The position numbers and the translations under genes are program-made. Under the pieces are notes generated by a model. The model ran no database searches, was not told where the DNA came from, and saw only the letters and a list, made by a program, of their open reading frames with translations. Positions 33,094 through 59,754 of a stretch of DNA of 64,000 bases are shown here, piece after piece. Origin of the DNA: Candidatus Uhrbacteria bacterium RIFCSPLOWO2_01_FULL_47_25 (lineage in GTDB: Bacteria > Patescibacteriota > Patescibacteriia > GWA2-46-9); assembly GCA_001791325.1 (NCBI GenBank), contig MGEK01000004.1, positions 8,566-72,565 on the forward strand, read 5' to 3'. Numbering within the stretch: the stretch's first letter is position 1; each line of letters starts with the position of its first letter.

Positions 33094-34479
33094 CTAAAAT
33101 ACCGGCACTCCTTGATCCTGCTGCCGCTCAAGATTTTGGAAGCTTACTCGGCCTTCGTCAAAGTATAATTCCACGACACCAGTCGGTCCATTACGGTGTT
33201 TTTCTATTCTAATTTGAGCAATATTACGTTCCTCTGGCGATACATCGCGAACGCTGCGATCCATGGCCTTCCTGTATATAAATAAAACAACGTCCGCGTC
33301 TTGCTCTATGGTTCCAGAATCGCGCAAGTCGGCGAGTTTAGGAATGGCCGGACTACGAGCTTCCACCGCCCTAGACAGTTGCGACAACGCTAATATCGGT
33401 ATATTTAACTCACGCGCCAAGCTTTTAAGGGCTCTGGTGATTTCAGATATTTCTTGCACGCGGTTGTCTGATTTGGTGCGCGATTCCATAAGTTGTAAAT
33501 AATCAATTATCAGTAGCCCCAGTCCTTTTTCCATCTGTAAACGGCGGGCTCTGGCGCGTATTTCCATAATATTAGCCGTGGCTCCGTCGTCAATATATAT
33601 TGGAGCATTAGATAAAACATCCATAGCGTGACCAATTCGGCTAAAATCATTATCGTCGCCTTTGTCAGAAAGACGACCAGTGCGCATTCGCCAGAGATCA
33701 ACGCCCGCCTCAGCGCACAGCATTCTATCCACAAGCTGTTCTTTAGACATTTCCAGACTAAAAATACCAACCGGTATTTTTGACTGAATAGCGGCATGGC
33801 GAGCTATATCCAGAGCTAATGAGGTTTTACCAACCGAGGGCCGCGCGGCAAGTATAATTAAATCTGATTTTTGCATACCAGCCAGCTTAGCGTCCAACTC
33901 TTTAAATTGCGTTGGTATTCCCCTGAGCTTCCCTCCTTCATGATGTAATTCATCAATGCGTTCAAATGCTTCGTTGAGCAGTGATTTTATTGATATGAAG
34001 ACATGGCGAAGATATTTTTGAGTGACAGAAAACAATGTTCGTTCGGCTTGATCTAAAGTGTTATCAATATCTGGTTCCTCTTCGTATCCTAGACCAGTAA
34101 TTTTTACACCCGCTTCCAGTAGCCGCCGAAGAGTCGCCTTCCGTTGAACAATACCAGCATAGTTATCCGCATGGGCGGCCGTGGGCACGGCGTTTACCAA
34201 GCTGACTAGGTAACTTTGACCGCCTATAATTTGAAGTTGCTTTTTTTCATCCAGACGGTTGCTGATGCTTAGTATATCTATTGGTTCATGTTTTAAGAAA
34301 AGATCCATCATGGCCTCATAAATAAAGCGATGAGCATCCCTGTAAAAATCTTCTGCCGTGACAAGATCAATAACCCTAAAGACCGCTTCTTTGTCCAGCA
34401 ATAGGGCGCCCAGTAAGGACTGTTCAGCCTCCAAATTTTGGGGCGGTACTTTGATTACTTCATTTGTATCTGCGGGCAT
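33094..34479 (-). CDS. dnaB: replicative DNA helicase DnaB
   Basis: N-terminal DnaB domain; Walker A LIILAARPSVGKTSLALD; RecA-like C-terminal domain. Confidence 0.9.
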   Translation of the reverse strand: MPADTNEVIKVPPQNLEAEQSLLGALLLDKEAVFRVIDLVTAEDFYRDAHRFIYEAMMDLFLKHEPIDILSISNRLDEKKQLQIIGGQSYLVSLVNAVPTAAHADNYAGIVQRKATLRRLLEAGVKITGLGYEEEPDIDNTLDQAERTLFSVTQKYLRHVFISIKSLLNEAFERIDELHHEGGKLRGIPTQFKELDAKLAGMQKSDLIILAARPSVGKTSLALDIARHAAIQSKIPVGIFSLEMSKEQLVDRMLCAEAGVDLWRMRTGRLSDKGDDNDFSRIGHAMDVLSNAPIYIDDGATANIMEIRARARRLQMEKGLGLLIIDYLQLMESRTKSDNRVQEISEITRALKSLARELNIPILALSQLSRAVEARSPAIPKLADLRDSGTIEQDADVVLFIYRKAMDRSVRDVSPEERNIAQIRIEKHRNGPTGVVELYFDEGRVSFQNLERQQDQGVPVF

Positions 34480-34480
34480 A

Positions 34481-34602
34481 CCCCGTTAGAAGCCCTCGGC
34501 CCCGCTATGCGGGGCTGTGGTGATTAAAATATTTAATTGGTTGATAGATTGTACCATAACTATAAGGATTGATGATTATATTAAATTAGGCTTCTAACGG
34601 GG
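34481..34602. mobile_element. MITE/RPE-like element family 1, copy 3, abutting the dnaB start codon (element...GGGG-T-ATG on the minus strand)
   Basis: TIRs CCCCGTTAGAAG / CTTCTAACGGGG; CATA direct repeats at both flanks. Confidence 0.65.
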
Positions 34603-34713
34603 CATACTGTTAACTTTATAACGGGCTTATGCTTTGGGCAAGAGGAAAGAATGGGGGCTGTCTGTGGATTATTGCGTTTATGTGCCTTATGCTATCATAT
34701 AAAGCAGTAATAT

Positions 34714-35397
34714 ATGTATGAACACACATTGGGGCAAGTGCTTTGGTTGGCCTTTCGAGATACAATTGAAAGCCTGCTTATATATTTGCCTTTAGTTTTT
34801 GGGGGATTATTGATATTTGTAGGCGGATGGGTGGCGGCTGGATTGATTGGCCGAGGGGTAGAGCGTTTAGGGGAATATTTGGGGCTAGATTACGTTTGGG
34901 AAAGGTTACGACTGAATGAGCCATTGATGTATATATGGCCAAAGCAGGCCATATCTCACGCTTTGGGGATGCTTGTTCGCTGGCTTTTGATCTTTTTATT
35001 GCTATCGGCCGTAGCTGAGGCGTTACATTTGTCTGCCGTGACAGGCTTCCTGCAATCACTAGTTAGTTATCTGCCGCACCTCGTGTCGGCTATAGTAATT
35101 TTAATGATCGGCGTGCTAGCAGCCGGTGTTTTGGATAAATTGACGACCATTGGCGTGGTGGCTACTCGCTTTGGGCCGAGTGATTTGCTTGGGGCTGTTA
35201 TTCGCTGGAGTGTTTTGATTTTTTCTTTCTTGGCCGCCGCTAGAGAACTGGGCGTTTCTAATGATTTAATCCAAACGGTAATAACAGGATTTGTGGCTAT
35301 GTTGGCTATAGCCGGAGGCATTGCTTTTGGTCTTGGCGGTAAAGATTATGTGACTGGTCTTATCAGTAAAATTAATCGTGACTTCACGCGCCAATAA
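34714..35397 (+). CDS. small membrane protein with two 'conserved TM helix' (MscS N-terminal-like) repeats
   Basis: Two hydrophobic repeat units; no channel domain. Confidence 0.4.
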   Translation: MYEHTLGQVLWLAFRDTIESLLIYLPLVFGGLLIFVGGWVAAGLIGRGVERLGEYLGLDYVWERLRLNEPLMYIWPKQAISHALGMLVRWLLIFLLLSAVAEALHLSAVTGFLQSLVSYLPHLVSAIVILMIGVLAAGVLDKLTTIGVVATRFGPSDLLGAVIRWSVLIFSFLAAARELGVSNDLIQTVITGFVAMLAIAGGIAFGLGGKDYVTGLISKINRDFTRQ

Positions 35398-35431
35398 TTA
35401 AAACTAAAGCTTATCTTTATGCGCTTAATTT

Positions 35432-35533
35432 ACCCCGTTAGAGAATGCCCCGCTCCGCCCCGCCGCGGCGGGGTGCAATTTCCCCGTACGAGCACGACGG
35501 GGTCTAATGCCCCGTGCGAGTTCTCTAACGGGG
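35432..35533. mobile_element. MITE/RPE-like element family 1, copy 4
   Basis: CCCCGTTAGAGAATGCCCCGC...GTGCGAGTTCTCTAACGGGG. One frame translates without stops to NPVRELARGIRP...GAFSNGV (spurious ORF 35425..35649). Confidence 0.65.
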
Positions 35534-35571
35534 TTTGCTAGATTATTGGCATCTGTTTTATATTCAGATCC

Positions 35572-35647
35572 GTGGGTCCGTAGCTCAATGGTAGAGCAAG
35601 AGCCTTTTAAGCTCGAGGTTCTGGGTTCGAGTCCCAGCGGACCCACC
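35572..35647 (+). tRNA. tRNA-Lys(TTT)
   Basis: GTGGGTC/GACCCAC acceptor; anticodon loop CTTTTAA; T-arm CTGGG-TTCGAGT-CCCAG. Confidence 0.8.
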
Positions 35648-35771
35648 ATAGATAGAGATATAAATAAAATAAAAAGTTCTAGTTGTGATATTATTTTTTA
35701 TAATATGACACTATGGGGCGGGCATAGGGTATTCTGGAAGGTGCGGGATAAATCTATTTAGTAATTATCAA

Positions 35772-36446
35772 ATGGCATTTCTTGATAAGCTTATTCTTAA
35801 TGAAGGCGAGGAGCTTGTCAGCGTCACCAGAGCGCATTGGTTGGCGGTGCTTGCGCCTTATGTGATTATCGCGCTAATTTTCTTAGCGCCGTTCTTTTTT
35901 CTCTGGCCATTGTTTCAATTTGGCTCTATTGGAGTTTATGTTTTTTTCGTTATTATTTTTATTGCTATATTTTTGGCGGCGCGAGAAAATCGTCGCTGGC
36001 AACGCAGTATGCTAGTTTTAACATCAACCCGCCTTTTATGGTTTGAACAAAAAGGCTTTTTTGATCGTACGGTAACTGAAACTTTTTATCAAAACATCCA
36101 GGATATATCTTATCGCATTAAAGGATTTTTTCAGACTATGGCTCATTTCGGGTCATTGCGCGTTCAGATTGCCGGAGCTAGTGGGCCGCTTGAAATCAAA
36201 TATTTGCCCAATCCTGATAAAATTCAACATGTGATTCTTGATTTTCGGGAACAAAAAAGAGCAGTTGTATCTGGCGCCGATAATGAATGGTGGGAGGATC
36301 GTATATCAGCTATGAGTAAGGAGGAGCGGCAAATTTTTTTTAGCAATATTCGCAATCAAATTGGCGAGGAGGCTTGGTATAATTTATTCAGACCAAAAAC
36401 TCAAAGCAGTGTTAAAGACAGAAACTTGCCCGAGGCGCTCCTCTAA
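35772..36446 (+). CDS. membrane protein with bacterial PH (bPH_2, YdbS/YdbT-like) domain
   Basis: Two TM helices then LVLTSTRLLWFEQKGFFDRTVTETFYQNIQDISYRIKGF. Confidence 0.5.
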   Translation: MAFLDKLILNEGEELVSVTRAHWLAVLAPYVIIALIFLAPFFFLWPLFQFGSIGVYVFFVIIFIAIFLAARENRRWQRSMLVLTSTRLLWFEQKGFFDRTVTETFYQNIQDISYRIKGFFQTMAHFGSLRVQIAGASGPLEIKYLPNPDKIQHVILDFREQKRAVVSGADNEWWEDRISAMSKEERQIFFSNIRNQIGEEAWYNLFRPKTQSSVKDRNLPEALL

Positions 36447-36460
36447 AGTAAAATATCCGT

Positions 36461-36874
36461 ATGCATGTGGTCAATCGCCTAGGCGATCTTAAATCGTGGC
36501 TACCGTGGATTATAGGTATTTTGATAGCCTTAATGTCGCTGGCGATTGGAAAACTGGCGGTTAAGAGGTATAGTATACAGCAGGAAATTAAGGCCGAGCA
36601 ACGGGAAATATCCTTAGCGGGCGCTAGGAATGACGAGCTGTTAACGCTTTTGCAATACGTTCAATCGCCGATTTATGCCGAGGAGCAGGCGCGACTGAAG
36701 TTCGGTTTGGCTAAACCGGGCGAGAAGGCAGCTGTTGTGCCAGATGTTAATAGCGGAAATACTGATAATGGCGCGGGAACCCTGTTTGAGAAATCAAATG
36801 GCGACATTGAATCAGGGCAACCAAATTATCAAAAATGGTGGAATTATTTTTTTGCAAGTTATGAATGGCAATAA
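36461..36874 (+). CDS. septum formation initiator (FtsB/DivIC-like)
   Basis: Single TM + coiled coil + EEQARLKFGLAKPGEKAAVV. Confidence 0.6.
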   Translation: MHVVNRLGDLKSWLPWIIGILIALMSLAIGKLAVKRYSIQQEIKAEQREISLAGARNDELLTLLQYVQSPIYAEEQARLKFGLAKPGEKAAVVPDVNSGNTDNGAGTLFEKSNGDIESGQPNYQKWWNYFFASYEWQ

Positions 36875-37853
36875 AGTAACGGAAGATATAAATAAGGCCA
36901 GTGAATCATTTGATTCAAATAAAACTGCGGATAAAGAGAAAAGCCGAGAGGCCATGCGCTCAATAGTTTTACGATGGATTGAAAGCGAGGATGAAAAAAT
37001 AAAAAAACATAATATAGAAGAAGAATCCGTTGTTAAAGATGATAGGGGAAAAAGAATAATTGAAGCGCGGTCATTTGATATCGCCACCGTAGAAAAAACC
37101 GAAAGGGAAAAAGAAACTATTCACAAAGCTCGTCAGCCAAAAGCGTTGTCGGTCAAGAAAAGAGAGCAACCATCAGGAGAAATGGTGGATCGCCGAGAGC
37201 GCGACATTCCGGAATTCCATGTTACTCCCTCATTGCTACCGCGCCGTAAAGTGACCAACGGATTGGCAGTGCTGTATTCTTTTATATGGGTTACGTTTAT
37301 CGCGGGTATAATGATTTTAAGTTTTGGTGTTTACAAACTAGGGTGGAATGACCCTTTGACCAATCAATTATTGAACTACGTGCCATTGCCGTATGGTTTT
37401 GTTCGTTATCATCCAATTTGGTACAGTATTTATCGTCAGGAATACCAAGCCATTAGTCGTTTTCGCGGTCAACAAGCAGTAAGCACTCGTTTAACTGTTT
37501 CGCCCGAAGAGATTGAAGGGATTTTATTAAGGCGAACGATTGCCAATGATTTAGCGTGGAGTAATGGTTTATGGGTTACTAGCGAAGAAGTAGAGGGTGA
37601 ATTTGACAGTATTGCATCAAGGGCTGGATCAACAGAAGAGGTTGAACGTGCCATACAATCATTATGGGGATACAGCCTTGATGAATATAAGCAACGTGTA
37701 ATTAGACCGTATTTGCTCAAAAAGAAATTATTCGCTGTTTTGGCCGCCAACAATTTATTGCGTCGTAAAACCAGTGAGGCTAACGATTTACAAGTACTTG
37801 ACGCCTATCTTGATGGGCTTAGGGCATCAACGCCAGTGGTACTGTTTCGCTAA
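36861..37853 (+). CDS. hypothetical membrane protein with SurA-N/PpiD-like C-terminal region (start set at ATG 36861 overlapping the FtsB stop; the longer listed ORF starts inside ftsB)
   Basis: TM GLAVLYSFIWVTFIAGIMILSF; no strong motifs. Confidence 0.4.
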   Translation: MNGNKVTEDINKASESFDSNKTADKEKSREAMRSIVLRWIESEDEKIKKHNIEEESVVKDDRGKRIIEARSFDIATVEKTEREKETIHKARQPKALSVKKREQPSGEMVDRRERDIPEFHVTPSLLPRRKVTNGLAVLYSFIWVTFIAGIMILSFGVYKLGWNDPLTNQLLNYVPLPYGFVRYHPIWYSIYRQEYQAISRFRGQQAVSTRLTVSPEEIEGILLRRTIANDLAWSNGLWVTSEEVEGEFDSIASRAGSTEEVERAIQSLWGYSLDEYKQRVIRPYLLKKKLFAVLAANNLLRRKTSEANDLQVLDAYLDGLRASTPVVLFR

Positions 37854-37884
37854 TCCCGTTAAAGCCCAAAGATAAAAATTTATA

Positions 37885-38011
37885 TGGAGCTGGAGGCGAG
37901 ATTTGAACTCGCGACCCATCGCTTACGAAGCGATTGCCCCGCCTGCCATCGCCTAAGCTTCCTGTTAGAATTGAACTGACGTCCGCGGTTTACCTGCCCG
38001 CCATTTGCCTA
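37885..38011 (-). pseudogene. tRNA-derived fragments: 3' two-thirds of a tRNA (anticodon arm ATCGC-TTCGTAA-GCGAT, T-arm GCGAG-TTCAAAT-CTCGC, CTCCAGC-T-CCA) without a matching 5' acceptor strand, plus palindromic stem arms
   Basis: Reverse complement read directly; required acceptor 5' strand GCTGGAG is absent. Confidence 0.45.
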
Positions 38012-38083
38012 AGCCAGCGGTGAGATTTGAACTCACGACCTCTGCTTTACGAAAGCATTGCTCTACCTCTGAGCTACGCTGGC
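38012..38083 (-). tRNA. tRNA-Thr(CGT)
   Basis: Reverse complement GCCAGCG-TA-GCTC-AGAGGTA-GAGC-A-ATGCT-TTCGTAA-AGCAG-AGGTC-GTGAG-TTCAAAT-CTCAC-CGCTGGC-T. Confidence 0.8.
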
Positions 38084-38190
38084 AAATCGCGATGGCAGGC
38101 GGGCGATACCGCTGTTCTACCACTGAACTAAGGAGGCTCGGGACATGGCGGGCAGGTCTACCGTTGAGCTACTCCGGCATGCTTTAATAA
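38084..38190 (-). pseudogene. tRNA 5'-half-like fragment (GCCTCCTTAGTTCAGTGGTAGAACAGCGG) plus stem arms complementary to 37937-37954 / 37985-38009
   Basis: D-arm recognisable; no cognate 3' half. Confidence 0.4.
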
Positions 38191-38194
38191 AATA

Positions 38195-38265
38195 AGCGGG
38201 ATACCGGGATCGAACCGGTGCTCTCAGCTTGGGAAGCTGATGTAATGCCACTATACTAATCCCGC
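38195..38265 (-). tRNA. tRNA-Gly(CCC)
   Basis: Reverse complement GCGGGAT-TA-GTAT-AGTGGC-ATTAC-A-TCAGC-TTCCCAA-GCTGA-GAG-CACCGG-TTCGATC-CCGGT-ATCCCGC-T. Confidence 0.8.
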
Positions 38266-38269
38266 AAAA

Positions 38270-38340
38270 GATACGGGTAACCCCGCTTAGCGGGGTGTTC
38301 CTAGCTTGGGAAGCTAGTGTACTGCCATTGTACTACACCC
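38270..38340 (-). pseudogene. tRNA-Gly(CCC)-like 5' two-thirds (acceptor GCGGGTG, D-arm, anticodon arm CTAGC-TTCCCAA-GCTAG) followed by a CCCCGC-TAA-GCGGGG hairpin instead of a T-arm
   Basis: Reverse complement read directly. Confidence 0.45.
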
Positions 38341-38540
38341 GCACGATACACGACCATAGCCAATCGGTTCTTCTTTTGATATAATAAAAAACAAAACTTG
38401 TCAGAATACGTTATACGTTTCTAGAGTATAGAAAATGGAGCATTTATTGGCAAGGTGTTGGGTGATATTTGCCAGTCTGCCGCTCTTTTTTATTAAATTT
38501 CACGAATTCCCGAGCATAAGTTCGGAGATTATTTAGAAGA

Positions 38541-39221
38541 ATGATTCATCTAAAAGGCGTTACCAAACAATATCCCGGCAACATAGTTGCCATCCGTAAT
38601 ATAACCCTGCACATTGAACCGGGTGAGTTTGTTTCCGTAGTTGGTCAGTCGGGCGCCGGCAAAAGCACGATAGTGCGCCTATTGATGGCCGAAGAAGCGG
38701 CTAGCCGCGGTCGTATTATTGTGGGAGGCTGGGATATCACCGGCATTAAAAGACGAGAAATACCAGTTCTAAGACGCCAGATCGGCGTTGTGTTTCAAGA
38801 TTATAAGCTGCTGCGCAAGAAGACAATTTTTGAAAATGTTTCCTTTGCCCTAGAAGTATGCGGGGAGCCGCGCCAAAAAATTAAGACTCTCGTGCCGCAA
38901 CTCTTAAAAATAGTTGGGCTTGAAAATCAGCAGAGAAGATTCCCAGATCAACTATCTGGCGGAGAACAGCAAAGAGTGAGCATTGCGCGAGCGTTAGCCC
39001 ACAGACCCAAGCTTCTTTTGGCGGATGAACCAACGGGCAATCTTGATTCGCTTAATGCTCAAGAGATTGTTGACGTATTACGTAAAATCAATGAACTCGG
39101 CACCACTATTATGTTAGTGACGCACAATCGTGACATCGTTAACGCTTTAAAAAAGCGGGTAATTACGCTTGATCACGGCGAAATAATATCTGATCAAGCA
39201 GTAGGCCGTTATGTTTTATAG
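38541..39221 (+). CDS. ftsE: cell division ATP-binding protein FtsE
   Basis: ABC ATPase with [35 protein letters not shown]. Confidence 0.85.
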
Positions 39222-40128
39222 CATCTGGCGTATTATAAAATTTAGCAGCACAAATATCTGGAGAAATTTTTGGCTGTCTTTTATTACTACCAGTACGATC
39301 ATCATCACCCTCATGAGTGTTAGTCTGGTCTGGGCACTGCAGATTGGGTTAAAACAAATTATTAGCTCGGCCGAAAAACGAATTGATATGTCCGTGTATT
39401 TTTATCCATCAATCACTGATGCCCAGGCCAATAGCGTGATTACTGCCCTAAAGACTATCCCCGGTGTTCAAGAAATTGCTTTTGTGACAAAAGAACAGGC
39501 CCTAGCCAATTATGAAAAAATGGCCAAGGACTCTCCGGAGTTATTGGACCCGCTTTCTGCGATCGGTCAAAATCCTTTTGGTTCATCAATTATTATTAAA
39601 ACCAATGAACCATCGGCGTACTCCGGCGTCATTGAGGAATTAAACAAGCCGCAGTACAAGGATTTAATTGAAGGGCAGAAAAAAGACTATGAGGAGAACC
39701 GACTATTTATTGATTCATTCTCCGCATTTACAAATAAGGTTAGACTATCAGGATTAATCATAAGTTTCATTTTTGCTATTATAGCCGTGCTCTTAATTTT
39801 TAACGCGATCAGAGTGGCTATTTACACGCAACGCGAGGAAATCGCTATTATGAAACTGGTTGGCGCTTCCAACTGGTTTGTCCGCGTGCCATTCTTAATA
39901 GAAACCGCGATTTATAGCGCCATTGCCATTATCATAAGCGGGGGTTTATTCTTTGCTCTTTTATATTTTGTACAGCCATATTTAGGGATCTATTTTGGCG
40001 GAGATGTTGACCTTCTGGGTTATTTCACTGATAATGCAGTAACTTTTTTGGGGCTTGAATTTATAGTCCTAGCATCGTTGAATGTTTTAGTGGGCAGTTT
40101 GGCTCTGCGGCGTTATCTTAAAGTTTAG
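39211..40128 (+). CDS. ftsX: cell division permease FtsX
   Basis: FtsX topology; extracellular domain; IAIMKLVGASNWFVRVPF. Confidence 0.8.
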   Translation: MFYSIWRIIKFSSTNIWRNFWLSFITTSTIIITLMSVSLVWALQIGLKQIISSAEKRIDMSVYFYPSITDAQANSVITALKTIPGVQEIAFVTKEQALANYEKMAKDSPELLDPLSAIGQNPFGSSIIIKTNEPSAYSGVIEELNKPQYKDLIEGQKKDYEENRLFIDSFSAFTNKVRLSGLIISFIFAIIAVLLIFNAIRVAIYTQREEIAIMKLVGASNWFVRVPFLIETAIYSAIAIIISGGLFFALLYFVQPYLGIYFGGDVDLLGYFTDNAVTFLGLEFIVLASLNVLVGSLALRRYLKV

Positions 40129-40160
40129 GTTAGCGGCTGGCGCGAAGTCCCGCCCTCTTC

Positions 40161-40231
40161 TCGGGGGTCGTCTAATGGCAGGACATCACCCTTTGGAGGT
40201 GAGTATGATGGTTCGAATCCATCCCCCCGAG
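40161..40231 (+). tRNA. tRNA-Gln(TTG) embedded in an ~18-bp extended acceptor helix (CCGCCCTCTTCTCGGGGG...CCCCCGAGAAGAGGGCGG)
   Basis: TCGGGGG/CCCCCGA acceptor; anticodon arm TCACC-CTTTGGA-GGTGA; T-arm GATGG-TTCGAAT-CCATC. Confidence 0.8.
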
Positions 40232-40289
40232 AAGAGGGCGGGAGAGCCGTGAACTCAATAGTTTAGAAATGGCATAGAGCTATAAATAG

Positions 40290-40793: not shown

Positions 40794-40806
40794 TTTTTAA
40801 GGTATG

Positions 40807-40952
40807 CCCCGTTAAAAGTCTGACTCAATATAATTATCGCATCTTTAACCATGACACTATCTATCAATCAATTAAATATCATCCCGCATGGCGGGACCAC
40901 AGAAGATAAAATTCTTTTGGGAATTTTATCTTCATAAGGACTTCTAACGGGG
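40807..40952. mobile_element. MITE/RPE-like element family 1, copy 5, inserted at the antiporter start codon (TATG duplicated; ...CTTCTAACGGGG-T-ATG)
   Basis: TIRs CCCCGTTAAAAGTC / GACTTCTAACGGGG; flanks AAGGTATG|...|TATGCC. Confidence 0.65.
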
Positions 40953-40953
40953 T

Positions 40954-42651
40954 ATGCCAATTTTTTTGCAATTAAGCGCCATCTTGGGCATTGCTTTGGC
41001 GGTTTCTTTTATTGTTAAACAATTACGTCAGCCTTTGGTAATTGGCTATATCATTACCGGCATTATCGTTGGACCTATGTTTTTGGGATTGGTGCGTCCT
41101 GGCGACACTATTGAGTCATTTGGACAGATAGGCGTAGCGCTTTTGTTGTTTATTGTCGGCCTCGGTCTTAAACCAGAAATAATTAAAGAGGTTGGGCGAA
41201 CATCTGTGGTGACCGGCCTTGGACAAATTATTTTCACCGCCGTTATTGGTTTCGCCATAGGAGTTGCCTTGCATTACGATGTTATTACGGCATTGTATCT
41301 TGCCATCGCTTTTACTTTTTCCAGCACCATTATTGTTTTGCAGCTGCTTTACAGCAAAGATGAGCAGGATACATTATATGGCCGCGTTGCTATCGGTTTT
41401 TTGTTAGTGCAGGATTTTGTCGCTCTTTTGTTATTTTTATTTTTAACCAGCGCTAGCGCAAACGATAGCGGTATTTATGGATTTTTTGCCGCTATGTCTT
41501 TTAAGGTTTTAGCGATTGGCTTAGCCGTTTATTTGTTGAGCCGCGAGTTAGTGCCGCGCATTGATATGGCCTTTGCTCGCAGTCGCGAGGTGTTATTTCT
41601 TTTTGCTTTGACGAGCGCCTTGAGCCTGGCCACGCTTTTTGAGGCTTTGGGATTTTCTTTTCAGCTCGGCGCCTTGTCGGCTGGCGTTATTCTCTCCAGT
41701 TCTCCTTATCAGCGCGAAATTGCCGCTCGTCTGGCTACCTTACGAGATTTTTTTCTTATTATGTTTTTTGTTATTCTTGGCGCGAGCGTATCATTAGACA
41801 TCATTCAAAATTTTTGGCCCGCTATTATAATTTTCTCCCTCTTTATTCTTATTGGGAATCCCTTAATTGTTATTATTTTGATGCGGCATTTGGGTTACAC
41901 TTTGGAGACAAGTTTTTTTGCGGGGTTAACAGTCGCCCAAATCAGTGAATTTTCCTTAATCTTATTAGCCTTAGGAGTGAGTTTAAAGCATATTGCCGCG
42001 CCGGTTATGGGGGCGGCTACCGTAGTTGGGTTAATAACGATTTTTTTCTCTTCTTATTTTATTATTAACAATCGTCGTTTGTTGCGACTAATAGAGCCAT
42101 TGCTCAGGCGTATTTTTGGCGTTGACAAAAATCAAGTCGCGACCATAACGACAGAGCAACCACAAGTGATTTTATTTGGTTGCCACCGACTCGGCGGCGG
42201 GATCGTCGCCACTTTAAAAGAAAGGGAGATATCGTTGCTGGTAATTGATCATGACCCCGATGTTGTGCAAGAGTTGGAAACCGCGCATACTTCCTGCCTT
42301 TTCGGTTCCGCTGACGACATTAATTTTTTGGAAACCCTGCCCGTGTCGCAGTGCCAAACGTTTATTTCAACAATACCAGAGGAGGATGTTAATTTCGTGT
42401 TAGTGGAGTACCTGCGTCGCCGCAATCCCACAGCCATTATTCTATGTATTTCTAATCACCATCACCAGGCTTCTTCTTTGTACACGGCCGGCGCGACTTA
42501 CGTGATTGTGCCCCCGTATCTTGGTCGACGTTATCTGATTGAATTATTGCGCGAACATGGGCTAAACAAGCAAGGGTATTTGGCTGAACGCGAATTGCAC
42601 GAGCGGGAATTAGGCTATATGCAAAACGGCATTAATTCATCTGTGCTATAA
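40954..42651 (+). CDS. monovalent cation:proton antiporter (CPA2/Kef-type) with C-terminal TrkA-N-like domain
   Basis: 12-13 TM helices; Na_H_Exchanger-like N-terminus. Confidence 0.75.
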   Translation: MPIFLQLSAILGIALAVSFIVKQLRQPLVIGYIITGIIVGPMFLGLVRPGDTIESFGQIGVALLLFIVGLGLKPEIIKEVGRTSVVTGLGQIIFTAVIGFAIGVALHYDVITALYLAIAFTFSSTIIVLQLLYSKDEQDTLYGRVAIGFLLVQDFVALLLFLFLTSASANDSGIYGFFAAMSFKVLAIGLAVYLLSRELVPRIDMAFARSREVLFLFALTSALSLATLFEALGFSFQLGALSAGVILSSSPYQREIAARLATLRDFFLIMFFVILGASVSLDIIQNFWPAIIIFSLFILIGNPLIVIILMRHLGYTLETSFFAGLTVAQISEFSLILLALGVSLKHIAAPVMGAATVVGLITIFFSSYFIINNRRLLRLIEPLLRRIFGVDKNQVATITTEQPQVILFGCHRLGGGIVATLKEREISLLVIDHDPDVVQELETAHTSCLFGSADDINFLETLPVSQCQTFISTIPEEDVNFVLVEYLRRRNPTAIILCISNHHHQASSLYTAGATYVIVPPYLGRRYLIELLREHGLNKQGYLAERELHERELGYMQNGINSSVL

Positions 42652-51210: not shown

Positions 51211-51419
51211 ATCTCAGTTTGCGTCGACAGACATAGGGAAGTAACCTTTAAAATAGATTAATTTGTACTAGAATATCCGATATTTATTATGTAAAAACTC
51301 TCATACTACATAGTATGATAGTTTTAGATCATTATAATATTGTACGACACAAAAATTACTGTTAATAATTGATCAATGAGTGCTATACTGAATACAGCCC
51401 ATAATCAAGGAGGGACAAA

Positions 51420-52162: not shown

Positions 52163-52261
52163 CCTCGCACCATGCCTGCTGAATAGGCAGGGCTTGTGCT
52201 GTGTATTTGAGTATTCCTCCTCACGCTACGCTGACGCGTGGTAATTCTGCATGGTGCGGGG
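52163..52261. mobile_element. MITE-like element family 2, copy E2 (CCTCGCACCATG...CATGGTGCGGGG), 12 bp upstream of the minus-strand membrane-protein start
   Basis: TIRs and shared internal CACGCT..GCGTGG hairpin with E1. Confidence 0.55.
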
Positions 52262-52306
52262 TTCATTTACGGCTTTACAGGCATAATTTTGGTGGTACGG
52301 GGGGTT

Positions 52307-53521
52307 TTACGGCAAAAATGGCAAAGGATCCTGGGGAATTCCGCTGAGACGCGTCTCAAAGTGTAAATGCGGGCCAGTACTAAACGGCCCGGCTCCCGGG
52401 GTGCCTGGAATGCCTCCAGACAAAGCAATTACTTCGCCCTGCGCCACAAATGAATCTTGCTTAACCATTATTTTTGAAACATGGCCATATACGGTGGCCA
52501 GCCCGCCATTGTGAATAATCATGACAAAGCCATAACCTCGCTTGCCGCCGGTTTGGACGCGGGCTACATAACCAGAGGCGGCCGTTCTAATGGGCGTTCC
52601 CTGATAAGCGCGTATATCAATACCAGAATGCTCAAACAGGCGGCGAAATGGGTAATCTGGATCATGAAATAGCGTAGATAATCCGCGATTGCGAGGCACG
52701 GGCCAGATTAAAACCGGTTTCTCGCCGTCCGTGGTTAATCCTTCTTGGCGTAAGCGTTCCCGCACTTCACGTTCAAGATTTGTTATTTCTTGATTGGTTT
52801 GCTCTTGCTCACGACGCGCCTCCTCTAGGAGAGCAGAAAAACGCTGTTCTGATGAACGGGTTTCTTGTAATAAATAAGCTTTGCTCTCTTGTTGTGCCTC
52901 AAATGATAGCTGTTGCTCTTCCAAAATGCTAAGTTCCTCAACCAGTCCTTGCCGTTTATCCTCTAATTGTTTTTTATCATCATTGAGTCTATTTTTTAGA
53001 GCTTCAACATCACTTACTAGACGCCCGATACTGATTTGTACTGTTTTAATTTGTTTCAGTTCTCCATAAAAATCAGCAAACGACGACCGTGTAAATAGGA
53101 TTTGAATTATGCTTCTGCTCTGTTCACGAGCAAGCCATCTCACCAAGGCCCCCAACTGCTCTTTATACTCCGAAATTTGTTTTTCTTTAGCACGAATGCT
53201 GTTTTCTAATCCGCTAATTTCTAAATTAGTAACCTCCACATTAGTTCGCCCCATCTCTATATCAAGAGCTGTTTTATTAAGGCGATCCGTTAGAATAGTA
53301 AGTTGATTTGATAAGGTCAGTCGTTCTTGCCTTTTTTGTTGAAGATTGATTTCGTAAATGGCCGCTTTTTTCTTAAGATCTTCTACTCTTTGCAATTTTT
53401 CTCGCAGAGTGGCTTGCAGGTCATTAACTTCCTCGGCCAAAACAATGGTTGGTAAGATAATAATAAGGGCACTGAAAGTCATTATGAATGTTGTAGAATA
53501 TCTCTGCTTAAAAATACGCAT
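52307..53521 (-). CDS. coiled-coil M23 family metallopeptidase (EnvC/NlpD-like)
   Basis: Long coiled coil then GIDIRAYQGTPIRTAASGYVA...GFVMIIHNGGLATVYGHVS. Confidence 0.8.
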   Translation of the reverse strand: MRIFKQRYSTTFIMTFSALIIILPTIVLAEEVNDLQATLREKLQRVEDLKKKAAIYEINLQQKRQERLTLSNQLTILTDRLNKTALDIEMGRTNVEVTNLEISGLENSIRAKEKQISEYKEQLGALVRWLAREQSRSIIQILFTRSSFADFYGELKQIKTVQISIGRLVSDVEALKNRLNDDKKQLEDKRQGLVEELSILEEQQLSFEAQQESKAYLLQETRSSEQRFSALLEEARREQEQTNQEITNLEREVRERLRQEGLTTDGEKPVLIWPVPRNRGLSTLFHDPDYPFRRLFEHSGIDIRAYQGTPIRTAASGYVARVQTGGKRGYGFVMIIHNGGLATVYGHVSKIMVKQDSFVAQGEVIALSGGIPGTPGAGPFSTGPHLHFETRLSGIPQDPLPFLP

Positions 53522-53522
53522 A

Positions 53523-54989
53523 TTAACTCAATTTTTTTATGGCTTGAGTAATTCTGGATAACGTTTTGGTCTTACCCAAAATAGAGGCGGTGATAAATGG
53601 GCCAGGACTTTCTTTTAAGCCGGTTAAAGCGACTCGCAGAGGCCACAAGGTCTCCCCTACTCCTAATTTTTCTTCATTGATTACCGTCTTAATAATATCT
53701 TCAAGATTGGTTTCGCTAAAATCAGATTCAGGGCAGCTCTCTAAAAGTTTAATCAAGCGCTTTAATTTTTGTAAAGTAACGGCCGGATTAGTGGTTTTCC
53801 AATTTAACAGTTTGGCCTCATAATCCGGTTGGCGAAACAAGAAACCGACGATATCTGGCACTTCGGAAAATTTTTTAGCTCTCTCGGCTACAAGTAAACT
53901 AATTTGCTCAAGCTGGTTATCTGTCAGATTTTTAGCACCAACTTGTTCAAGGTATGGTTTTGCCAAGCGAATGATCTCAAGGGTTGGTAAAGATTTCAAA
54001 TAATGGGCATTAAACCAATCAAGCTTCTGGTTATCAAAAATGGCCCCTGATTTGTTCACGGTGTTAAGATCAAATTTATCAATTAATTCTTCCCGAGTAA
54101 AAAACTCTTTTGATGTTTTTGGATTCCAGCCCAGCAAAGCCAGGTAGTTAATTATGGCCCCTGGCAGATAACCGTCATCACGAAATTTGAGAATATCGGT
54201 GCTACCATGGCGTTTGCTTAATTTGGAACGATCACGGCCTAGGATTAATGGTAAATGAGCGAAGCGGGGGGGTGTCCAGCCAAGAGCTTTGTACATAATC
54301 AGTTGTTTGGGCGTGGAAGGCAGCCATTCTTCGGCACGAATAACTGGATCAATATTCATAAGATGATCGTCAACAACCGAAGCAAGATGATAAGTGGGCC
54401 AACCATCGCTTTTTAAGAGCACCTGGTCATCAATAACGGCATTCTTAAAGTGAACACGTCCGCGTATCAAATCATTAACAGTGGTCTCCCCTATTTTTGG
54501 TATTTTCAAACGAATTATTGATAGTTCTCCAGATTGGACGCGCTTAAATGATTCTTGTGCATTAAGAGATCGACAATGACCATCATAACCTACTGGTTTT
54601 TTTGTTTTTTCTTGTTCCAGTCGTAGTTTTTGCAATCGCTCCGGCGCGCAAAAACAATAATAAGCATCCTCACTCGTCACTAAACGATCAGCGTAATCTT
54701 TATATAATATCAATCGTTCCGATTGACGATATGGGCCGTACGGACCGCCAATATCGGGCCCCTCATCATAATTGATCTGAAACCAGCGTAAAGCCTCAAT
54801 TATTTTGTTCTCAGCGCCCGGCCTCAATCTTGTTTGATCTGTATCTTCAATTCTTAAAATAAAATTGCCGTGATGGTGTTTAGCGTAAAGCCAATTAAAA
54901 AGAGCCGTCCAAATACTGCCAATATGCGGGTCGCCTGTTGGCGAAGGCGCAAAACGGGTACGAACTTTTGTGGGTTTTTTGTTCGGCAT
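53523..54989 (-). CDS. gltX: glutamate--tRNA ligase
   Basis: RFAPSPTGDPHIGSIWTALFNWLYAKHHHGNFILRIEDTD; KLSKR motif LSKRHG. Confidence 0.9.
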   Translation of the reverse strand: MPNKKPTKVRTRFAPSPTGDPHIGSIWTALFNWLYAKHHHGNFILRIEDTDQTRLRPGAENKIIEALRWFQINYDEGPDIGGPYGPYRQSERLILYKDYADRLVTSEDAYYCFCAPERLQKLRLEQEKTKKPVGYDGHCRSLNAQESFKRVQSGELSIIRLKIPKIGETTVNDLIRGRVHFKNAVIDDQVLLKSDGWPTYHLASVVDDHLMNIDPVIRAEEWLPSTPKQLIMYKALGWTPPRFAHLPLILGRDRSKLSKRHGSTDILKFRDDGYLPGAIINYLALLGWNPKTSKEFFTREELIDKFDLNTVNKSGAIFDNQKLDWFNAHYLKSLPTLEIIRLAKPYLEQVGAKNLTDNQLEQISLLVAERAKKFSEVPDIVGFLFRQPDYEAKLLNWKTTNPAVTLQKLKRLIKLLESCPESDFSETNLEDIIKTVINEEKLGVGETLWPLRVALTGLKESPGPFITASILGKTKTLSRITQAIKKLS

Positions 54990-54991
54990 TA

Positions 54992-56236
54992 CTAATTGGT
55001 AATTAAGCCCAGGCGACGTAAATCTTTGATAATAATTTTTGCCAGTGAACGGCGAACCGGATGAATAAAATCTAATAATTTATTTGGTGTTACCCACCGG
55101 AAATCAACCAATTCATGCTGGTCAACCTTGACAGTATCATTCTTGCCATCAAATTTCAAATAAAAAACAGTAACGCTCTGGCCGGCATAACCATGATAAA
55201 GTTTTCGCTTGGCGGTATCACTATCATTTTTAGACCAAATTTTTTGCCAACGGTATTTATATACGTCTGGTTTACTTTGCCCAATAATAGTTAAATTAGT
55301 AAGATTGAGCTCCTCTGCCATTTCTCTTAGCACGGCATTAGACGGCGTCTCATCCGGCTCCCGACCGCCTTGTGGAAATTGCCAATGATTGGGCACCCCA
55401 GCCCTTTCAACCAGAAGTATTTCTCCCTTTTTATTAATTATACAGCCGACCGTTAATGGTCTGTATTTGAATTTCATACTTAATAACCATCCTACCGTTT
55501 TTATCAAAAAAACGATAGTAGCTGTAAAAATTCTTCGCCAGCGACTGGGTGTATAAACGAAACGCCATGACCATTCTAATCCGATGCGTCTCATCCACCA
55601 AGGAGCTCTAACGACGCGATTGGCTAAATAATCAAGAGCGCCGCCCACCCCAATACCAACTTTAACGCTTGGACAGTAGGATAAAAATTTAGCTAACCAT
55701 TTTTCCTGCTGTCCATGTCCCAGGGCCACCACCAAAAAATCTGGTTTAACCTTATTTATGTGTTTGATTAGGCGGTCGTGCAGAGGATGATTAATTATAA
55801 AAATTTCACCCTTCATACTATAGACACCTCCTTTCGGTGGTTCGTTCGTACCGACTATGTTAATGCCATATTTAGCATGCACGTTTTTTGCCGCCTCTTT
55901 GGCCACACCATTCTCTCCGCCCAAAAAGAAAAATGACGTATCCTTTGGCACGCCAGCAAAGATCAAATTTAGAAAATCAGACCCCGTTACTCGTTCCTTT
56001 AAGCGATACCCGGCCAAGCGCAAAGCCAAGATTAAACCAAAACCGTCTACTAGCGCTAAATTAGCTCGCAGAAGAGCATCTCTGAAAGTTAAATCTTTAC
56101 TTGCTAAAACAACCATCTCTGGATTGGGAGTGACAATATAATGTTGTTTGCCGTCATTAAGAAATTTTTGTACTAATTTCAGCGCTTCATCTTGTGATAC
56201 GTTATCAACGGCTATGTTAAAACAATAAATCCGCAT
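54992..56236 (-). CDS. fusion protein: WecB/TagA/CpsF-family glycosyltransferase (N-terminal) + NUDIX hydrolase (C-terminal)
   Basis: TPNPEMVV...LALVDGFGL (WecG/TagA); NUDIX box GGREPDETPSNAVLREMAEELNL. Confidence 0.7.
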   Translation of the reverse strand: MRIYCFNIAVDNVSQDEALKLVQKFLNDGKQHYIVTPNPEMVVLASKDLTFRDALLRANLALVDGFGLILALRLAGYRLKERVTGSDFLNLIFAGVPKDTSFFFLGGENGVAKEAAKNVHAKYGINIVGTNEPPKGGVYSMKGEIFIINHPLHDRLIKHINKVKPDFLVVALGHGQQEKWLAKFLSYCPSVKVGIGVGGALDYLANRVVRAPWWMRRIGLEWSWRFVYTPSRWRRIFTATIVFLIKTVGWLLSMKFKYRPLTVGCIINKKGEILLVERAGVPNHWQFPQGGREPDETPSNAVLREMAEELNLTNLTIIGQSKPDVYKYRWQKIWSKNDSDTAKRKLYHGYAGQSVTVFYLKFDGKNDTVKVDQHELVDFRWVTPNKLLDFIHPVRRSLAKIIIKDLRRLGLITN

Positions 56237-56237
56237 A

Positions 56238-56843
56238 TCAGTTTAAACGTGCCGATTCAACGATACTGTAAATTGGGCCAGAAGCGCGTAATTTGCTTTC
56301 CATAAGATGAATTTCGTTAACTGACCAAGATATCGGTCTCGAAACATACCATTCGGTTGTCAGGGATTTTGTTTGCCGCAGGCGTCCAAGCGTGATATGA
56401 GGCACAAAACGTCGCTCATCTATAACAAAACCCAATGATTTTAGCTGATTAGATAGATTTTTATGCAGGGTATTCAAGACATGGCTCTTAATCTCTTCTA
56501 CGTTAATATACACAACTCTGGCGTTAGACGGTTGAGGAAAAGTCCCAAGACCCTTTAGTACCAATAAAAAAGGCCTTACCTTTATCGTACTCTCTTTTAT
56601 AATCTTAATAATCTCCGGCACTGTCCCCTCTTCCGTGTCGCCAAGAAAATGTAATGTTAGATGAGCTTGTTCAGGATTAACCCATTTAACATCATGGCCC
56701 GCCAACTTTTCCCATTCATGTTCTATCTCGCTGATAATCTTTTGGATAGTTATTGGCGACGGCACAGCAATAAAAAGACGTTTCATAATTCTGTTATTGT
56801 GATATATTTTTTTCATTTTGGCAAATCCAGGGATGCTTGACAT
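56238..56843 (-). CDS. 2H phosphoesterase (RNA 2',3'-cyclic phosphodiesterase ThpR/LigT-like)
   Basis: Two H-x-T-x motifs: AHLTLHFLG and PHITLGRL. Confidence 0.75.
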   Translation of the reverse strand: MSSIPGFAKMKKIYHNNRIMKRLFIAVPSPITIQKIISEIEHEWEKLAGHDVKWVNPEQAHLTLHFLGDTEEGTVPEIIKIIKESTIKVRPFLLVLKGLGTFPQPSNARVVYINVEEIKSHVLNTLHKNLSNQLKSLGFVIDERRFVPHITLGRLRQTKSLTTEWYVSRPISWSVNEIHLMESKLRASGPIYSIVESARLN

Positions 56844-56896
56844 CTATTTGGGCATTTGATAATCTAGCATTAGCACTCAAAGTATGAGAGTGCTAA

Positions 56897-57101
56897 CCCC
56901 GCACCTTTCGGCGTTACGAACGCCAGTACTAAAGCATATTTTTCTTTATGACTTATTATAATACCTATTCAATTCAACCAAGCGTTAATGCCAGCGTTCG
57001 TCATGAAGGCCGTGGCCTTGCAGTTTCAGTTATTGATTCTTTGTGGTCACCCGCGCTAGTGCGGTCAAGCCAAAGAACGCTAACGCCGTAAAGGTGCGGG
57101 G
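56897..57101. mobile_element. palindromic element family 3 (TIR CCCCGCACCTTTCGGCGTTACGAACGC / GAACGCTAACGCCGTAAAGGTGCGGGG) ending ...GGGG-T-ATG at the clpB start
   Basis: About 25-bp imperfect TIRs read directly. Confidence 0.5.
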
Positions 57102-57102
57102 T

Positions 57103-59754
57103 ATGCCGGTGAATAATTTTACGACAAAATCACAAGAGGCTCTTCAGCGCGCTTATCAATTAGCCAGCGAGCGTAACCATCAGCAAATAGAACCATTGCA
57201 CCTGTTGGCGGCTCTGCTTAGTCAAGAAGAGGGCATTGTTTTGCCGGTTTTAAAGCAATTAGAGGGACCCACAGCGACGATCAAGGAGGCCATCGCGACA
57301 GCTTTGGAATCCTTGCCGCATGTTCAATCGGGGGGTCTTTTGCAGGTTTACTTGAGTCCAGAAATGGCAGAAGTCTTGAAGCGGGCGGACGTTGAAGCCG
57401 GTCGTCTTAATGATGAATTTATCAGTACTGAACATCTGTTTTTGGCTATCTCTGAGGTTTCAAGTTCAGCCGCCGATATATTGCGGCGTTTTAAAATATC
57501 CTACGATAAAATTCTGCAGGTTTTGGTAAGTGTGCGCGGCACGCAGCGTATCACTGACGCTGAACCAGAATCAAAGTTTCAGGCCATGGAAAAATACGCG
57601 CGCAACCTGACTGCTCTGGCTCGTCAAAAAAAGTTGGATCCGGTGATCGGCCGTGATGATGAAATACGCAGAGTCATGCAAGTTTTGTCTCGGCGCACAA
57701 AAAATAATCCGGTGCTAATTGGCGAAGCGGGCACGGGTAAAACCGCCATCGTAGAGGGCTTAGCTCAGCGTATCACCGACGGTGATGTTCCAGAATCGCT
57801 GAAAGACAAAGAATTAATCGCGCTTGACCTTGGTTCCGTGCTGGCTGGCGCCAAATTTCGCGGTGAATTTGAAGATAGATTGAAGGCCGTATTGAAAGAA
57901 ATCAGCAACGCCGCTGGCAAAGTAATTTTATTTATTGATGAACTTCATACGTTGGTTGGCGCCGGCGCGGCCGAAGGAGCGATTGACGCTTCTAACATGC
58001 TAAAGCCCCCCTTGGCGCGTGGCGAACTGCATGCTATTGGCGCCACGACCTTGAAGGAGTATCAAAAATATATTGAAAAAGATCCGGCTCTAGAGAGACG
58101 TTTCCAGCCGGTTTATGTGGGCGAGCCGACGTTGGAAGATACGATCGCTATCCTGCGCGGGATTAAAGAAAGATATGAAGTTCATCACGGCGTCCGCATC
58201 ACGGACGCGGCCATTATCGCAGCGGCCAATTTGTCGGCGCGCTATATAACGGATAGATTTCTTCCAGACAAAGCAATTGACCTGATTGATGAAGCTGCTT
58301 CGTCGCTTCGTATGGAAATTGACAGCATGCCAACAGAGCTAGATAAACTCAAACGGCGAATTATTCAATTGGAGATAGAAAAACAGGCCATGCTAAACGA
58401 AACGGACGCGTCTTCATTGGAGCGTCGTCGCACCCTAGAGACAGAATTAGCTTCTTTACAGGAGAAAAATAATCAATTGGCGGTTCATTGGAAAAACGAA
58501 AAGGAAGCAATCGGTAAAATACGTGAAGCCAAAAAGAAAATTAACGCTTTCAAACAAGAGGCCGATATTGCCGAGCGACAGGCACAGTTTCAGCGTGTGG
58601 CTGAAATACGCTATGGTCTAATTCCCGATTTAGAAAAGGAAGTGAAAAAACAAGAGAACAAGCTTCTCTCTATCCAAAAAGAAAGCGGACAAAGCATACT
58701 GAAGGAAGAAATCACAGAACGCGACATCGCCCTTGTGGTGGCGCGCTGGACAGGTATACCTGTCGCTAAAATGCTTGAGGAAGAAACTCAAAAACTTGCG
58801 CGTGCCGAAGAAGAGCTGGGCCGACGAGTAGTTGGTCAAGAACCCGCTATTATATCGGTCGCTAATGCGCTCAGGCGTTCACGCGTAGGCATTAGTGAAG
58901 AAAATAGGCCGATTGGTAGTTTTATGTTTGTTGGGCCAACTGGTGTTGGCAAAACAGAATTGGCTAAAGCTTTGGCAGAATTCATGTTTAATGACGAGCA
59001 AGCGTTGGTGCGCGTGGATATGTCCGAATACATGGAAAAGCACAGTGTGGCCAAATTAATTGGCTCGCCGCCAGGATATGTTGGCTATGAGGAAGGAGGA
59101 CAATTAACGGAAAAAATCAGGCGTCGACCATATGCCGTTATTTTATTTGATGAGATAGAAAAAGCGCATCCAGATGTATTTAATATACTCTTACAAATAC
59201 TTGATGATGGCCGCCTGACTGACGCCAAGGGTCGCGTTACTAATTTCAAAAACACCATTATTATTATGACTTCTAATCTTGGCAATCAGATTATTCAAGA
59301 ATACACTTTGGGGTTTGCTGCGGCCGCTAAAAGCGATACGATGGCAAGCAAAGAAGACGAAATGGAACAAAAAATTATGACTATCATTAAAGAGCATTTT
59401 AAGCCGGAATTCTTAAACCGCGTTGATGATATTATTGTTTTTCATCATTTAACAGAAAAGCATCTCAGAGAAATAGTTGAAAAACAGCTTATAAAGGTTC
59501 AGGAACGGCTGCAGGGCAAGGGCATAATGCTCAAATTTACCGAGCAGGCTAAAATATTATTAAGTAGGGAAGGTTTTAATCCAGAATATGGAGCTCGACT
59601 ACTAAAGCGAGCTATTCAAACTCATCTGCTCGACCCTTTGGCTAAAAAAATCGTTGAAGGAAAGATGCATGAAAATATGACCATAATTGTTGATAGTGAT
59701 GGTAAAAAAATTACGATCAAGGCAGAGAACAAAAAAGCCATGGCCAATATCTAA
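57103..59754 (+). CDS. clpB: ATP-dependent chaperone ClpB (start set at ATG 57103; the listed ORF begins upstream inside the repeat element)
   Basis: Clp N-domain; two AAA+ modules ([15 protein letters not shown]; [15 protein letters not shown]); long middle coiled coil. Confidence 0.9.

Follow-up and report, generated by a model that had tools for sequence, protein, structure and literature searches.

Palindromic elements at start and stop codons in a 64-kb stretch of Uhrbacteria DNA

We analysed a 64,000-nucleotide stretch of contig MGEK01000004.1 from Candidatus Uhrbacteria bacterium RIFCSPLOWO2_01_FULL_47_25 (hereafter, the whole stretch is referred to as the window), a genome assembled from Rifle-aquifer metagenomes. 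Among named organisms, it is most closely related to Parcubacteria-group and Uhrbacteria members of the Patescibacteria (candidate phyla radiation, CPR). The window holds seven palindromic elements, designated A to G, six of which have ends of the form CCCCGTTAGA(A/G)...(C/T)TCTAACGGGG. An initial annotation, made from the sequence alone, had reported that three such elements end in GGGG one nucleotide before the initiation codon of a gene. These junctions proved to be exact: elements C, E and G run into T-ATG at the starts of dnaB, a CPA2/Kef-type antiporter gene and clpB, respectively. The same annotation gave ACGGGG as the end in all three cases, which holds for C and E; element G ends in GCGGGG and its flanks, CTAA and TATG, do not match each other.

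Element C (positions 34481–34602; 122 bp) has the terminal inverted repeat (TIR) CCCCGTTAGAAGCC/GGCTTCTAACGGGG and lies between two copies of CATA (34477–34480 and 34603–34606), which read TATG on the minus strand. The start codon of dnaB (34477–34479; gene 33094–34479, minus strand) is contained in the proximal copy, such that the minus strand reads ...GGCTTCTAACGGGG-T-ATG CCC GCA. Element E (40807–40952; 146 bp; left repeat CCCCGTTAAAAG, with one mismatch) is flanked by TATG on both sides (40803–40806 and 40953–40956) and, as the initial annotation had it, the proximal copy includes the start codon of the antiporter gene (40954–42651, plus strand; ATG at 40954), giving the junction ...GGACTTCTAACGGGG-T-ATG CCA. 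The distal ATG of element E (40804) opens just ATG CCC CGT TAA. Element G (56897–57101; 205 bp) has the repeat CCCCGCACCTTT(C/AC)GGCGTTA, with intact 27-bp arms, and joins clpB (57103–59754, plus strand) as ...AAAGGTGCGGGG-T-ATG CCG. A perfect CIRCE operator, TTAGCACTC-N9-GAGTGCTAA (56870–56896, plus strand), abuts its left end; element G thus separates the ATG of clpB from its heat-shock operator.

The identities and starts of these genes were checked by NCBIfam profile alignments and by the N-termini of relatives. DnaB matched TIGR00665 (E = 5e-164), with residue 12 of the protein aligned with profile position 2, and ClpB matched TIGR03346, with residue 6 aligned to profile position 1, in agreement with the N-termini in 20 relatives. 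The conserved N-terminal sequences MP[VLI]NNFTTKSQE (ClpB) and MP(Y)IF(I)QLSAILG (antiporter) also back the assigned starts. The true clpB start is therefore the ATG at 57103, and the public gene calls (P0001 and P0002), which begin at a GTG at 57043 inside element G, carry 20 extra residues encoded by the element arm.

Element B (32149–32253; 105 bp, with G+C-rich inner hairpins) abuts the stop codon of rplU, whose product is L21 (TIGR00061). As annotated, the arrangement is TTAA-element-TTAA, with the TAA (32146–32148) inside the left copy. Element F (62245–62348, plus strand; 104 bp) is flanked by TAAA on both sides and lies within priA (open reading frame (ORF) from 62132 to the window end). 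Together with its TAAA duplication it amounts to 108 nt, is in frame and free of stop codons, and inserts 36 codons near the N-terminus of PriA (NPVRELARGIRPSARTGKLHPAESTSWRSGAFSNGV); priA of relatives is uninterrupted. Element A (7543–7663; 121 bp; flanks TATA and TAGA) sits 22–31 nt upstream of a gene for a 4556-residue protein, in the same gene-relative orientation as C and E, and element D (35433–35533; 101 bp; flanks TTTA and TTTG) is intergenic. The CCCCGTTAGA copies had been grouped as one family, to which our analysis adds F as a sixth copy, but their interior sequences divide them into family 1 (A, C and E) and family 2 (B, D and F). Element G represents a third family, and comparison of family 3 with family 1 interiors revealed no significant homology. 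The interior of C is related to those of A and E and of a copy upstream of clpB in a relative (L127; see below).

The elements are miniature inverted-repeat transposable elements

The features described below show that the elements are MITEs (miniature inverted-repeat transposable elements), which are non-autonomous cut-and-paste transposons, with two classes of ends: CCCCGTTAGA...TCTAACGGGG in families 1 and 2, and CCCCGCACCTTT...AAAGGTGCGGGG in family 3. All seven window copies have TIR arms of 12–27 bp, and the elements are 97–212 bp in size and carry no ORF. The RNA folds predicted for C, E and G have energies of −55 to −79 kcal/mol, with z scores of −3.7 to −6.3 against shuffled sequence (−54.9 kcal/mol and −6.3 for C). 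The 20-bp stem of family 3 is invariant across 13 copies, and a covariation check of this family, which found the long stem invariant and one compensatory change elsewhere, gave no evidence of a selected RNA fold.

To survey the CCCCGTTAGA class, we scanned one genome per species for both ends, independently of the flanking sequence, and obtained at least 119 genome stretches. Among the matches listed, there were 125 complete copies, 72 of which had matching flanks, and the hosts included Patescibacteria, Omnitrophota, Planctomycetota, Desulfobacterota, Nitrospirota, Elusimicrobia and others. Identity between genomes was limited to the terminal 11–12 bp, the interiors forming 106 unrelated groups among 128 copies.

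Identical 4-bp flanks were found for B, C, E and F in the window, for the 72 surveyed copies and, in family 3, for 8 of the 12 copies that adjoin a start codon. Within a family the flanks co-vary on both sides, and hence they represent a genuine duplication of the target rather than a part of the element. Empty sites were found as well. In two antiporter relatives (L130 and L131; 70–73% identity), the site of element E consists of the DUF192 stop codon, 9–11 nt and ATGCC, where the window has TAATTTTTAAGG-TATG-(E)-TATG-CCA. Two clpB relatives (73–75% identity) are element-free, with CIRCE followed by 9–10 nt and then the ATG, and seven ribosomal-protein junctions are likewise empty in relatives.

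Two side observations concern variants of these elements. Nine or ten of the 125 surveyed copies have the flanks TTTA-element-TGAA, which are inverted rather than direct (for instance, L007:2728–2832, L013:1109–1207, L074:1253–1353 and L084:2136–2257), and the mirror arrangement TAAA-element-TTCA was never seen. Short palindromic elements with CCCCGCACC ends and other interiors occur at L133:4170–4316, L135:2743–2862 and L148:10227–10559, one group of which adjoins tRNA-like sequence. More than one MITE family thus shares the CCCCGCACC ends too.

Insertion is polar toward an asymmetric target

The duplications of the 72 matched-flank copies were TAAA/TTTA in 29 cases, TGAA/TTCA in 15, TCAA/TTGA in 9 and TATG/CATA in 4, the duplicated 4-bp target being broadly of the form T-N-N-A (TAAA, TGAA, TATG and so on). 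When the copies were oriented by their duplications, the base preceding the target was a purine in 85% of them, giving R·T-R-A-A. The direction of the interior matched that of the duplication in all 18 related pairs from different genomes (about 12 independent comparisons; P about 2e-4), indicating that insertion is polar. The choice of duplication is family-specific even in one genome, with TATG for families 1 and 3 and TAAA or TTAA for family 2. These results show that the elements insert with a fixed polarity toward an asymmetric target. Most lineages have R·T-R-A-A as this target, whereas families 1 and 3 of the present Patescibacteria lineage have T-A-T-G. The constant direction of the elements relative to the adjoining gene follows from this polarity.

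The nature of the targets accounts for what is seen at the gene boundaries. There is a start codon within TATG and a stop codon within each of TAAA, TGAA and TAGA, so that the duplication leaves an intact copy of the codon at each of the flanking genes. The string ...GGGG-T-ATG is accordingly the end of the element followed by the proximal copy of the duplication.

Start codons as insertion sites in the host lineage

When metagenomes were scanned for the ends of family 3, 24 Rifle-sample loci were retrieved, which, with the window, represent 14 unique sites. Twelve of these read ...AAAGGTGCGGGG-T-ATG, with the same one of the two arms facing the gene in all 12 and TATG as the far flank in 8. 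Eleven of the 12 abutted ATGs open ORFs of 93–883 codons, and the twelfth opens one of 35 codons. A co-directional ORF ends 2–12 nt upstream at 7 of the 12 sites and 48 nt upstream at an eighth, showing that most family 3 sites are tight operon junctions. The same contigs, which had been picked without regard to family 1, contained 11 further CCCCGTTAGA copies, and all seven family 1 copies with a TATG duplication (window included) are on start codons, of ORFs of 123–565 codons. The gene-relative orientation is uniform in both families (12/12 for family 3 and 9/9 for family 1). The abutted genes encode S6, L2, L22, L14, L5, S5, L15, RecO, an ABC ATPase and a response regulator. In 9 of these 10 proteins the profile alignment sets in at residues 1–7, and in S5 it does so at residue 27.

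Taken together, 18 of the 19 TATG-type copies of families 1 and 3 on the Rifle contigs are on start codons. Ninety TATG sites of the window are tolerated, i.e. compatible with a non-coding insertion, of which 25 are start codons and 65 lie elsewhere. The observed fraction thus compares with an expectation of 28% (P = 1.6e-9); even with an expectation of 50%, P is 4e-5. Counts of insertion positions relative to start and stop codons, of the kind that the initial annotation had proposed, bear out a start-codon excess in the surveyed and Rifle loci but give a weak signal within the window: with TATG given as the target, two copies on start codons have P = 0.08 and three have P = 0.02. It is the related loci that give the pattern its strength. 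The association with start codons is a genuine and unusual insertion habit, not a chance coincidence.

In a related Rifle genome, the tuf-S10-spc ribosomal-protein operon (L146, contig Ga0209542_10011951, reverse strand) contains seven or eight MITEs. They precede the genes for L2, L22, L14, L5, L18, S5 and L15, and six of them end one base before the ATG. In one relative (L156; 74% L5 identity) no MITE is present at the seven junctions compared, and in another (L157; 75%) none is present at 4 of 5 junctions, the fifth, L24–L5, having a decayed family 1 relic. In most of the compared ribosomal-protein junctions of the relatives, a T precedes the start ATG. The relic at L157:781–921 has a family 1-like interior with unrecognisable ends, and it shows that old copies erode in place.

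Some start codons have been hit by more than one family. At the L24–L5 junction, a family 3 copy comes after a decayed end of family 1. The start of clpB has a family 3 copy in the window and a family 1 copy in L127 (89% ClpB identity); the latter (L127:3521–3628; CTAA-element-TATA) occupies the position of element G. In L127 the adjacent ATG is now ATA, and the gene starts two codons later. We considered whether element G might be a diverged ortholog of this family 1 copy, which is unlikely given the lack of similarity and the intact 27-bp arms of G.

Start and stop codons in the cross-phylum survey

For the 72 matched-flank copies of the survey, we rebuilt the pre-insertion sequence; ORF calls started at the first ATG and required 80 codons or more. 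The duplication overlapped a start codon in 14 of the 72 copies and a stop codon in 11, two of them being ATGA stop/start overlaps. With the same 4-mers at the same loci, outside coding interiors, as the control, start overlaps numbered 14 against 7.3 expected (P = 0.002) and, for the 53 non-interior sites, stop overlaps numbered 10 against 4.5 expected (P = 0.005). The cross-phylum excess at start and stop codons is real, though only about two-fold.

A cleaner signal is seen at TGAA targets, where the last G of the element and the following TG form a GTG. At 19 of 38 TGAA flanks this GTG was in frame with an ORF of at least 80 codons, whereas the other frame gave 0. When such a target is A·TGAA, the original ATG stays on the far side and the junction rebuilds a GTG start. 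Four of the 125 copies, including F, are read through in frame inside genes, and in all four the element length plus 4 is divisible by three.

Other features of the window

Between positions 21350 and 30260, there are three repeated cassettes encoding four-helix-bundle proteins of the 23S-rRNA-intervening-sequence type, fused or adjacent to cohesin/dockerin proteins; each cassette is bracketed by GAATAT-rich direct and inverted repeats (D1–D3, D7, D9 and I3–I25). A solitary CCCCGTTAGA end at 5505–5514 is followed by three tandem tRNA-Gln-like units (5539, 5663 and 5791; region to 5863), of which only the last (5791) is called as a tRNA. An Rfam scan of the window returned tRNAs only. Two intergenic copies (31580–31609 and 51295–51324) of the 30-nt self-complementary sequence AAACT(A/C)TCATACTA(T/C)ATAGTATGATAGTTT could be an operator or some other small repeat.

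Origin and consequences of the start-codon association

We consider it likely that these MITEs insert polarly, with a 4-bp duplication, onto targets that contain start or stop codons, and that their bias toward start codons reflects the choice of target together with selection. The initial annotation had proposed, as one of two possibilities, that the elements target the start/stop context. The data support this more strongly than had been envisaged, with the roughly two-fold enrichment over the same 4-mers across phyla and 18 of 19 TATG copies on start codons. Many cistrons in the window are 1–11 nt apart or overlap, and 27 of 42 genes have a T directly before the start codon, making TATG the common start context. 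With such short intercistronic spacers and no dependence on a Shine-Dalgarno (SD) sequence, insertions would spare ribosome-binding sites and might survive even in a ribosomal-protein operon. The near-exclusive location at start codons would then arise from target choice, followed by selection for keeping both reading frames. The element would be co-transcribed and fold out as a long hairpin, holding the new AUG beside the upstream stop codon at the base of the stem, where terminating ribosomes may re-initiate; alternatively, a double-strand RNase may cleave the stem, which is reported to happen in Correia elements.

The other possibility raised by the initial annotation was that the G-rich termini serve as a ribosome-binding or leader structure. 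In concrete terms, translation of the abutting gene would start through base pairing of 16S rRNA with the G-rich end or with a purine-rich motif of the proximal arm. Such motifs do exist. In family 3, each of the 12 copies next to a start codon has AAGG at −12 to −9 from the ATG, the one motif whose spacing would be plausible; the arms of family 1 have [GA]AGG[AG] at about −19 to −15, and the best-conserved stretch of family 3 is the 33 nt adjoining the gene. However, the host genes do not appear to use SD sequences. An SD core motif (GGAG, GAGG or AAGGA) precedes 5 of 42 window genes, compared with 5.5% of random 14-mers, and two of these five motifs lie in element arms; outside the elements the count is 3 of 40 genes. 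The leaders of some 40 window genes are 70% A+T at −18 to −5. The GGGG, 1 nt from the ATG, is too close for an SD interaction, which takes a spacing of 5–10 nt, and the family 1 motif is 14 nt off. Both ends share the same 12 terminal bases, which are thus uninformative about the gene side, and the arm, including the family 3 AAGG (again present at both ends), is paired in the predicted stem of about 20 bp. Furthermore, relatives of families 1 and 2 are equally enriched on stop codons, and copies also occur in frame inside genes. A related claim was that the original SD sequence of the antiporter gene, AAGG (40799–40802), had been displaced upstream by element E; this AAGG is missing from the empty sites of the relatives. 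The ribosome-binding-site reading is therefore not supported, and we regard it as very unlikely, whereas a regulatory role for the element as a whole is possible. We also rejected translation that runs from the distal ATG into the element. In TATG-type copies this frame closes after three codons (ATG CCC CGT TAG/TAA), and an element length plus 4 that is a multiple of three is no commoner than chance predicts.

A mobile promoter or expression module, in which an outward promoter caused only the correctly oriented, start-adjacent copies to be kept, would account for the uniform orientation relative to the gene, for the TATAAT-like box that is fixed in family 1 (element positions 23–28 in C and E) and present in most family 3 copies, and for the lack of predicted sense-strand terminators. 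The orientation is, however, explained by the polarity of the duplication, which holds also for copies away from genes. As a consequence of polarity toward TATG, it is not independent evidence of function. Moreover, one subfamily of family 3 has a degenerate −10-like box, most copies are inside operons that already have a promoter, and CIRCE is still upstream of clpB. A sigma-70 scan found no −35/−10 pair in any element, albeit by rules that may not be those of the host, and scanning the elements and the ribosomal-protein operon for sigma-70 promoters and for terminators gave nothing consistent, as would fit read-through transcription. We thus judge this module to be very improbable. We give an equally small chance to pure survivorship, according to which insertion at AT-rich T-N-N-A is blind to genes and the pattern is what purifying selection leaves in a gene-dense genome. 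It fits the cross-phylum enrichment of only about two-fold over same-4-mer controls, obtained with crude gene models, the 31 of 72 copies that are plainly intergenic, and the length divisible by three in all four in-frame copies of the 125, a clear mark of selection. On the other hand, 18 of 19 TATG-type copies are on starts although 65 of the 90 tolerated TATG sites of the window are elsewhere, the same start codons (clpB and L24–L5) were hit repeatedly by different families, and duplication usage is family-specific within one genome.

Several points weigh against polar insertion onto start- and stop-containing targets as the explanation. In the predicted folds of C and E, both UAUG copies pair along with the TIRs, placing the AUG at the base of a stem of about 20 bp, and a stem that includes the AUG should hinder initiation. 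The 28% expectation rests on a single 64-kb window, and the survey used crude gene models, which begin at the first ATG and have a minimum of 80 codons. Element G has no matching duplication (CTAA versus TATG), and 53 of the 125 copies are without identical flanks, including G and the recurrent TTTA-element-TGAA class. Strict polarity is unusual among DDE transposons. No transposase was found between end pairs 0.6–3.5 kb apart in about 1 Mb of loci, and the elements are thus assigned to no insertion sequence (IS) family; such end pairs, with flanks matching or not, were neighbouring MITEs or enclosed efflux-pump genes. Finally, targeting and selection as sources of the start-codon specificity can be told apart only with young insertions.

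A bolder version of the preferred reading is that a MITE lineage has specialised for translation starts in ultra-compact, SD-less Patescibacteria, homing onto T·ATG at cistron junctions, with the hairpin either bypassed by re-initiating ribosomes, as a bacterial counterpart of ribosome shunting, or selected as an intercistronic processing or stabilising module. This version is doubtful; if true, the elements would report on, and perhaps shape, the choice of start codons in these organisms. A strictly polar, almost start-codon-only insertion of MITEs would in any case be an unusual target rule. At dnaB, clpB and seven or eight S10-spc junctions, essential and highly expressed genes begin one base after a hairpin of 100–200 nt whose stem includes the AUG, an arrangement that makes the initiation and coupling of translation in SD-less CPR bacteria directly testable. 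The elements also mislead gene callers, as exemplified by clpB, called 20 codons too long, and by priA, with its hidden 36-codon insert.

Comparison with known systems

Four-base-pair duplications of a short target with TA or T..A are made by the IS5 group (YTAR targets), IS1380 and IS701, and the ends of the IS1380 type begin with CC. IS200/IS605-derived palindrome-associated elements resemble the present ones in their oriented insertion by a fixed, family-specific tetranucleotide (here 18/18, with TATG at 12 of 14 family 3 sites). They have subterminal hairpins in place of TIRs and make no duplication, in contrast to the perfect inverted repeats and co-varying flanks found here; the co-varying flanks led us to reject an IS200/IS605-type mechanism.

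The Correia/NEMIS elements of Neisseria are about 100–150 bp long, with long TIRs and a target duplication, and are often near gene starts; they are co-transcribed as long hairpins that are reportedly cut by RNase III, and some carry promoters (PMC2229807, PMC3184786). Like these or ERIC, the present MITEs are hairpins near genes that would be co-transcribed. Correia elements differ in having a TA duplication and unrelated 24–26-bp repeats and in being restricted to Neisseria, whereas the present elements have a 4-bp duplication, and one of their terminal classes occurs in many phyla. With that duplication and with CCCCGTTAGA or CCCCGCACCTTT ends, they fall outside Correia/NEMIS. Placement exactly on start codons is not known for Correia, nor is strict polarity.

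The Neisseria REP2 and Borrelia IR repeats are similar in that a repeat in one orientation lies directly upstream of many ORFs, with the ATG at its end. REP2-type repeats supply a promoter, a site for ribosome binding plus an ATG upstream of genes (PMC2229807, a review by Delihas). They have no TIRs and no known target duplication, whereas our elements have long TIRs and the ATG comes from the duplicated target; also unlike REP2, only a −10-like box, and no sigma-70 −35/−10 pair, was detected, in a host without SD use. As regards the Rickettsia palindromic elements, element F fits what reviews describe for them in being a stop-free, in-frame insert of 36 codons in a conserved gene, priA. In the window this likeness applies to F and not to C, E and G, and it extends to four of the 125 surveyed copies: in-frame coding copies amount to about 3%, whereas start or stop codons are the prevailing place of insertion. 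No sequence relation to the Rickettsia elements was seen, although no comparison aimed at one was made. In full-text literature searches we found no account of this family or of start-codon-specific or polar MITE insertion. Nor did these searches yield a description of start-codon-exact polar insertion repeated through a ribosomal-protein operon.

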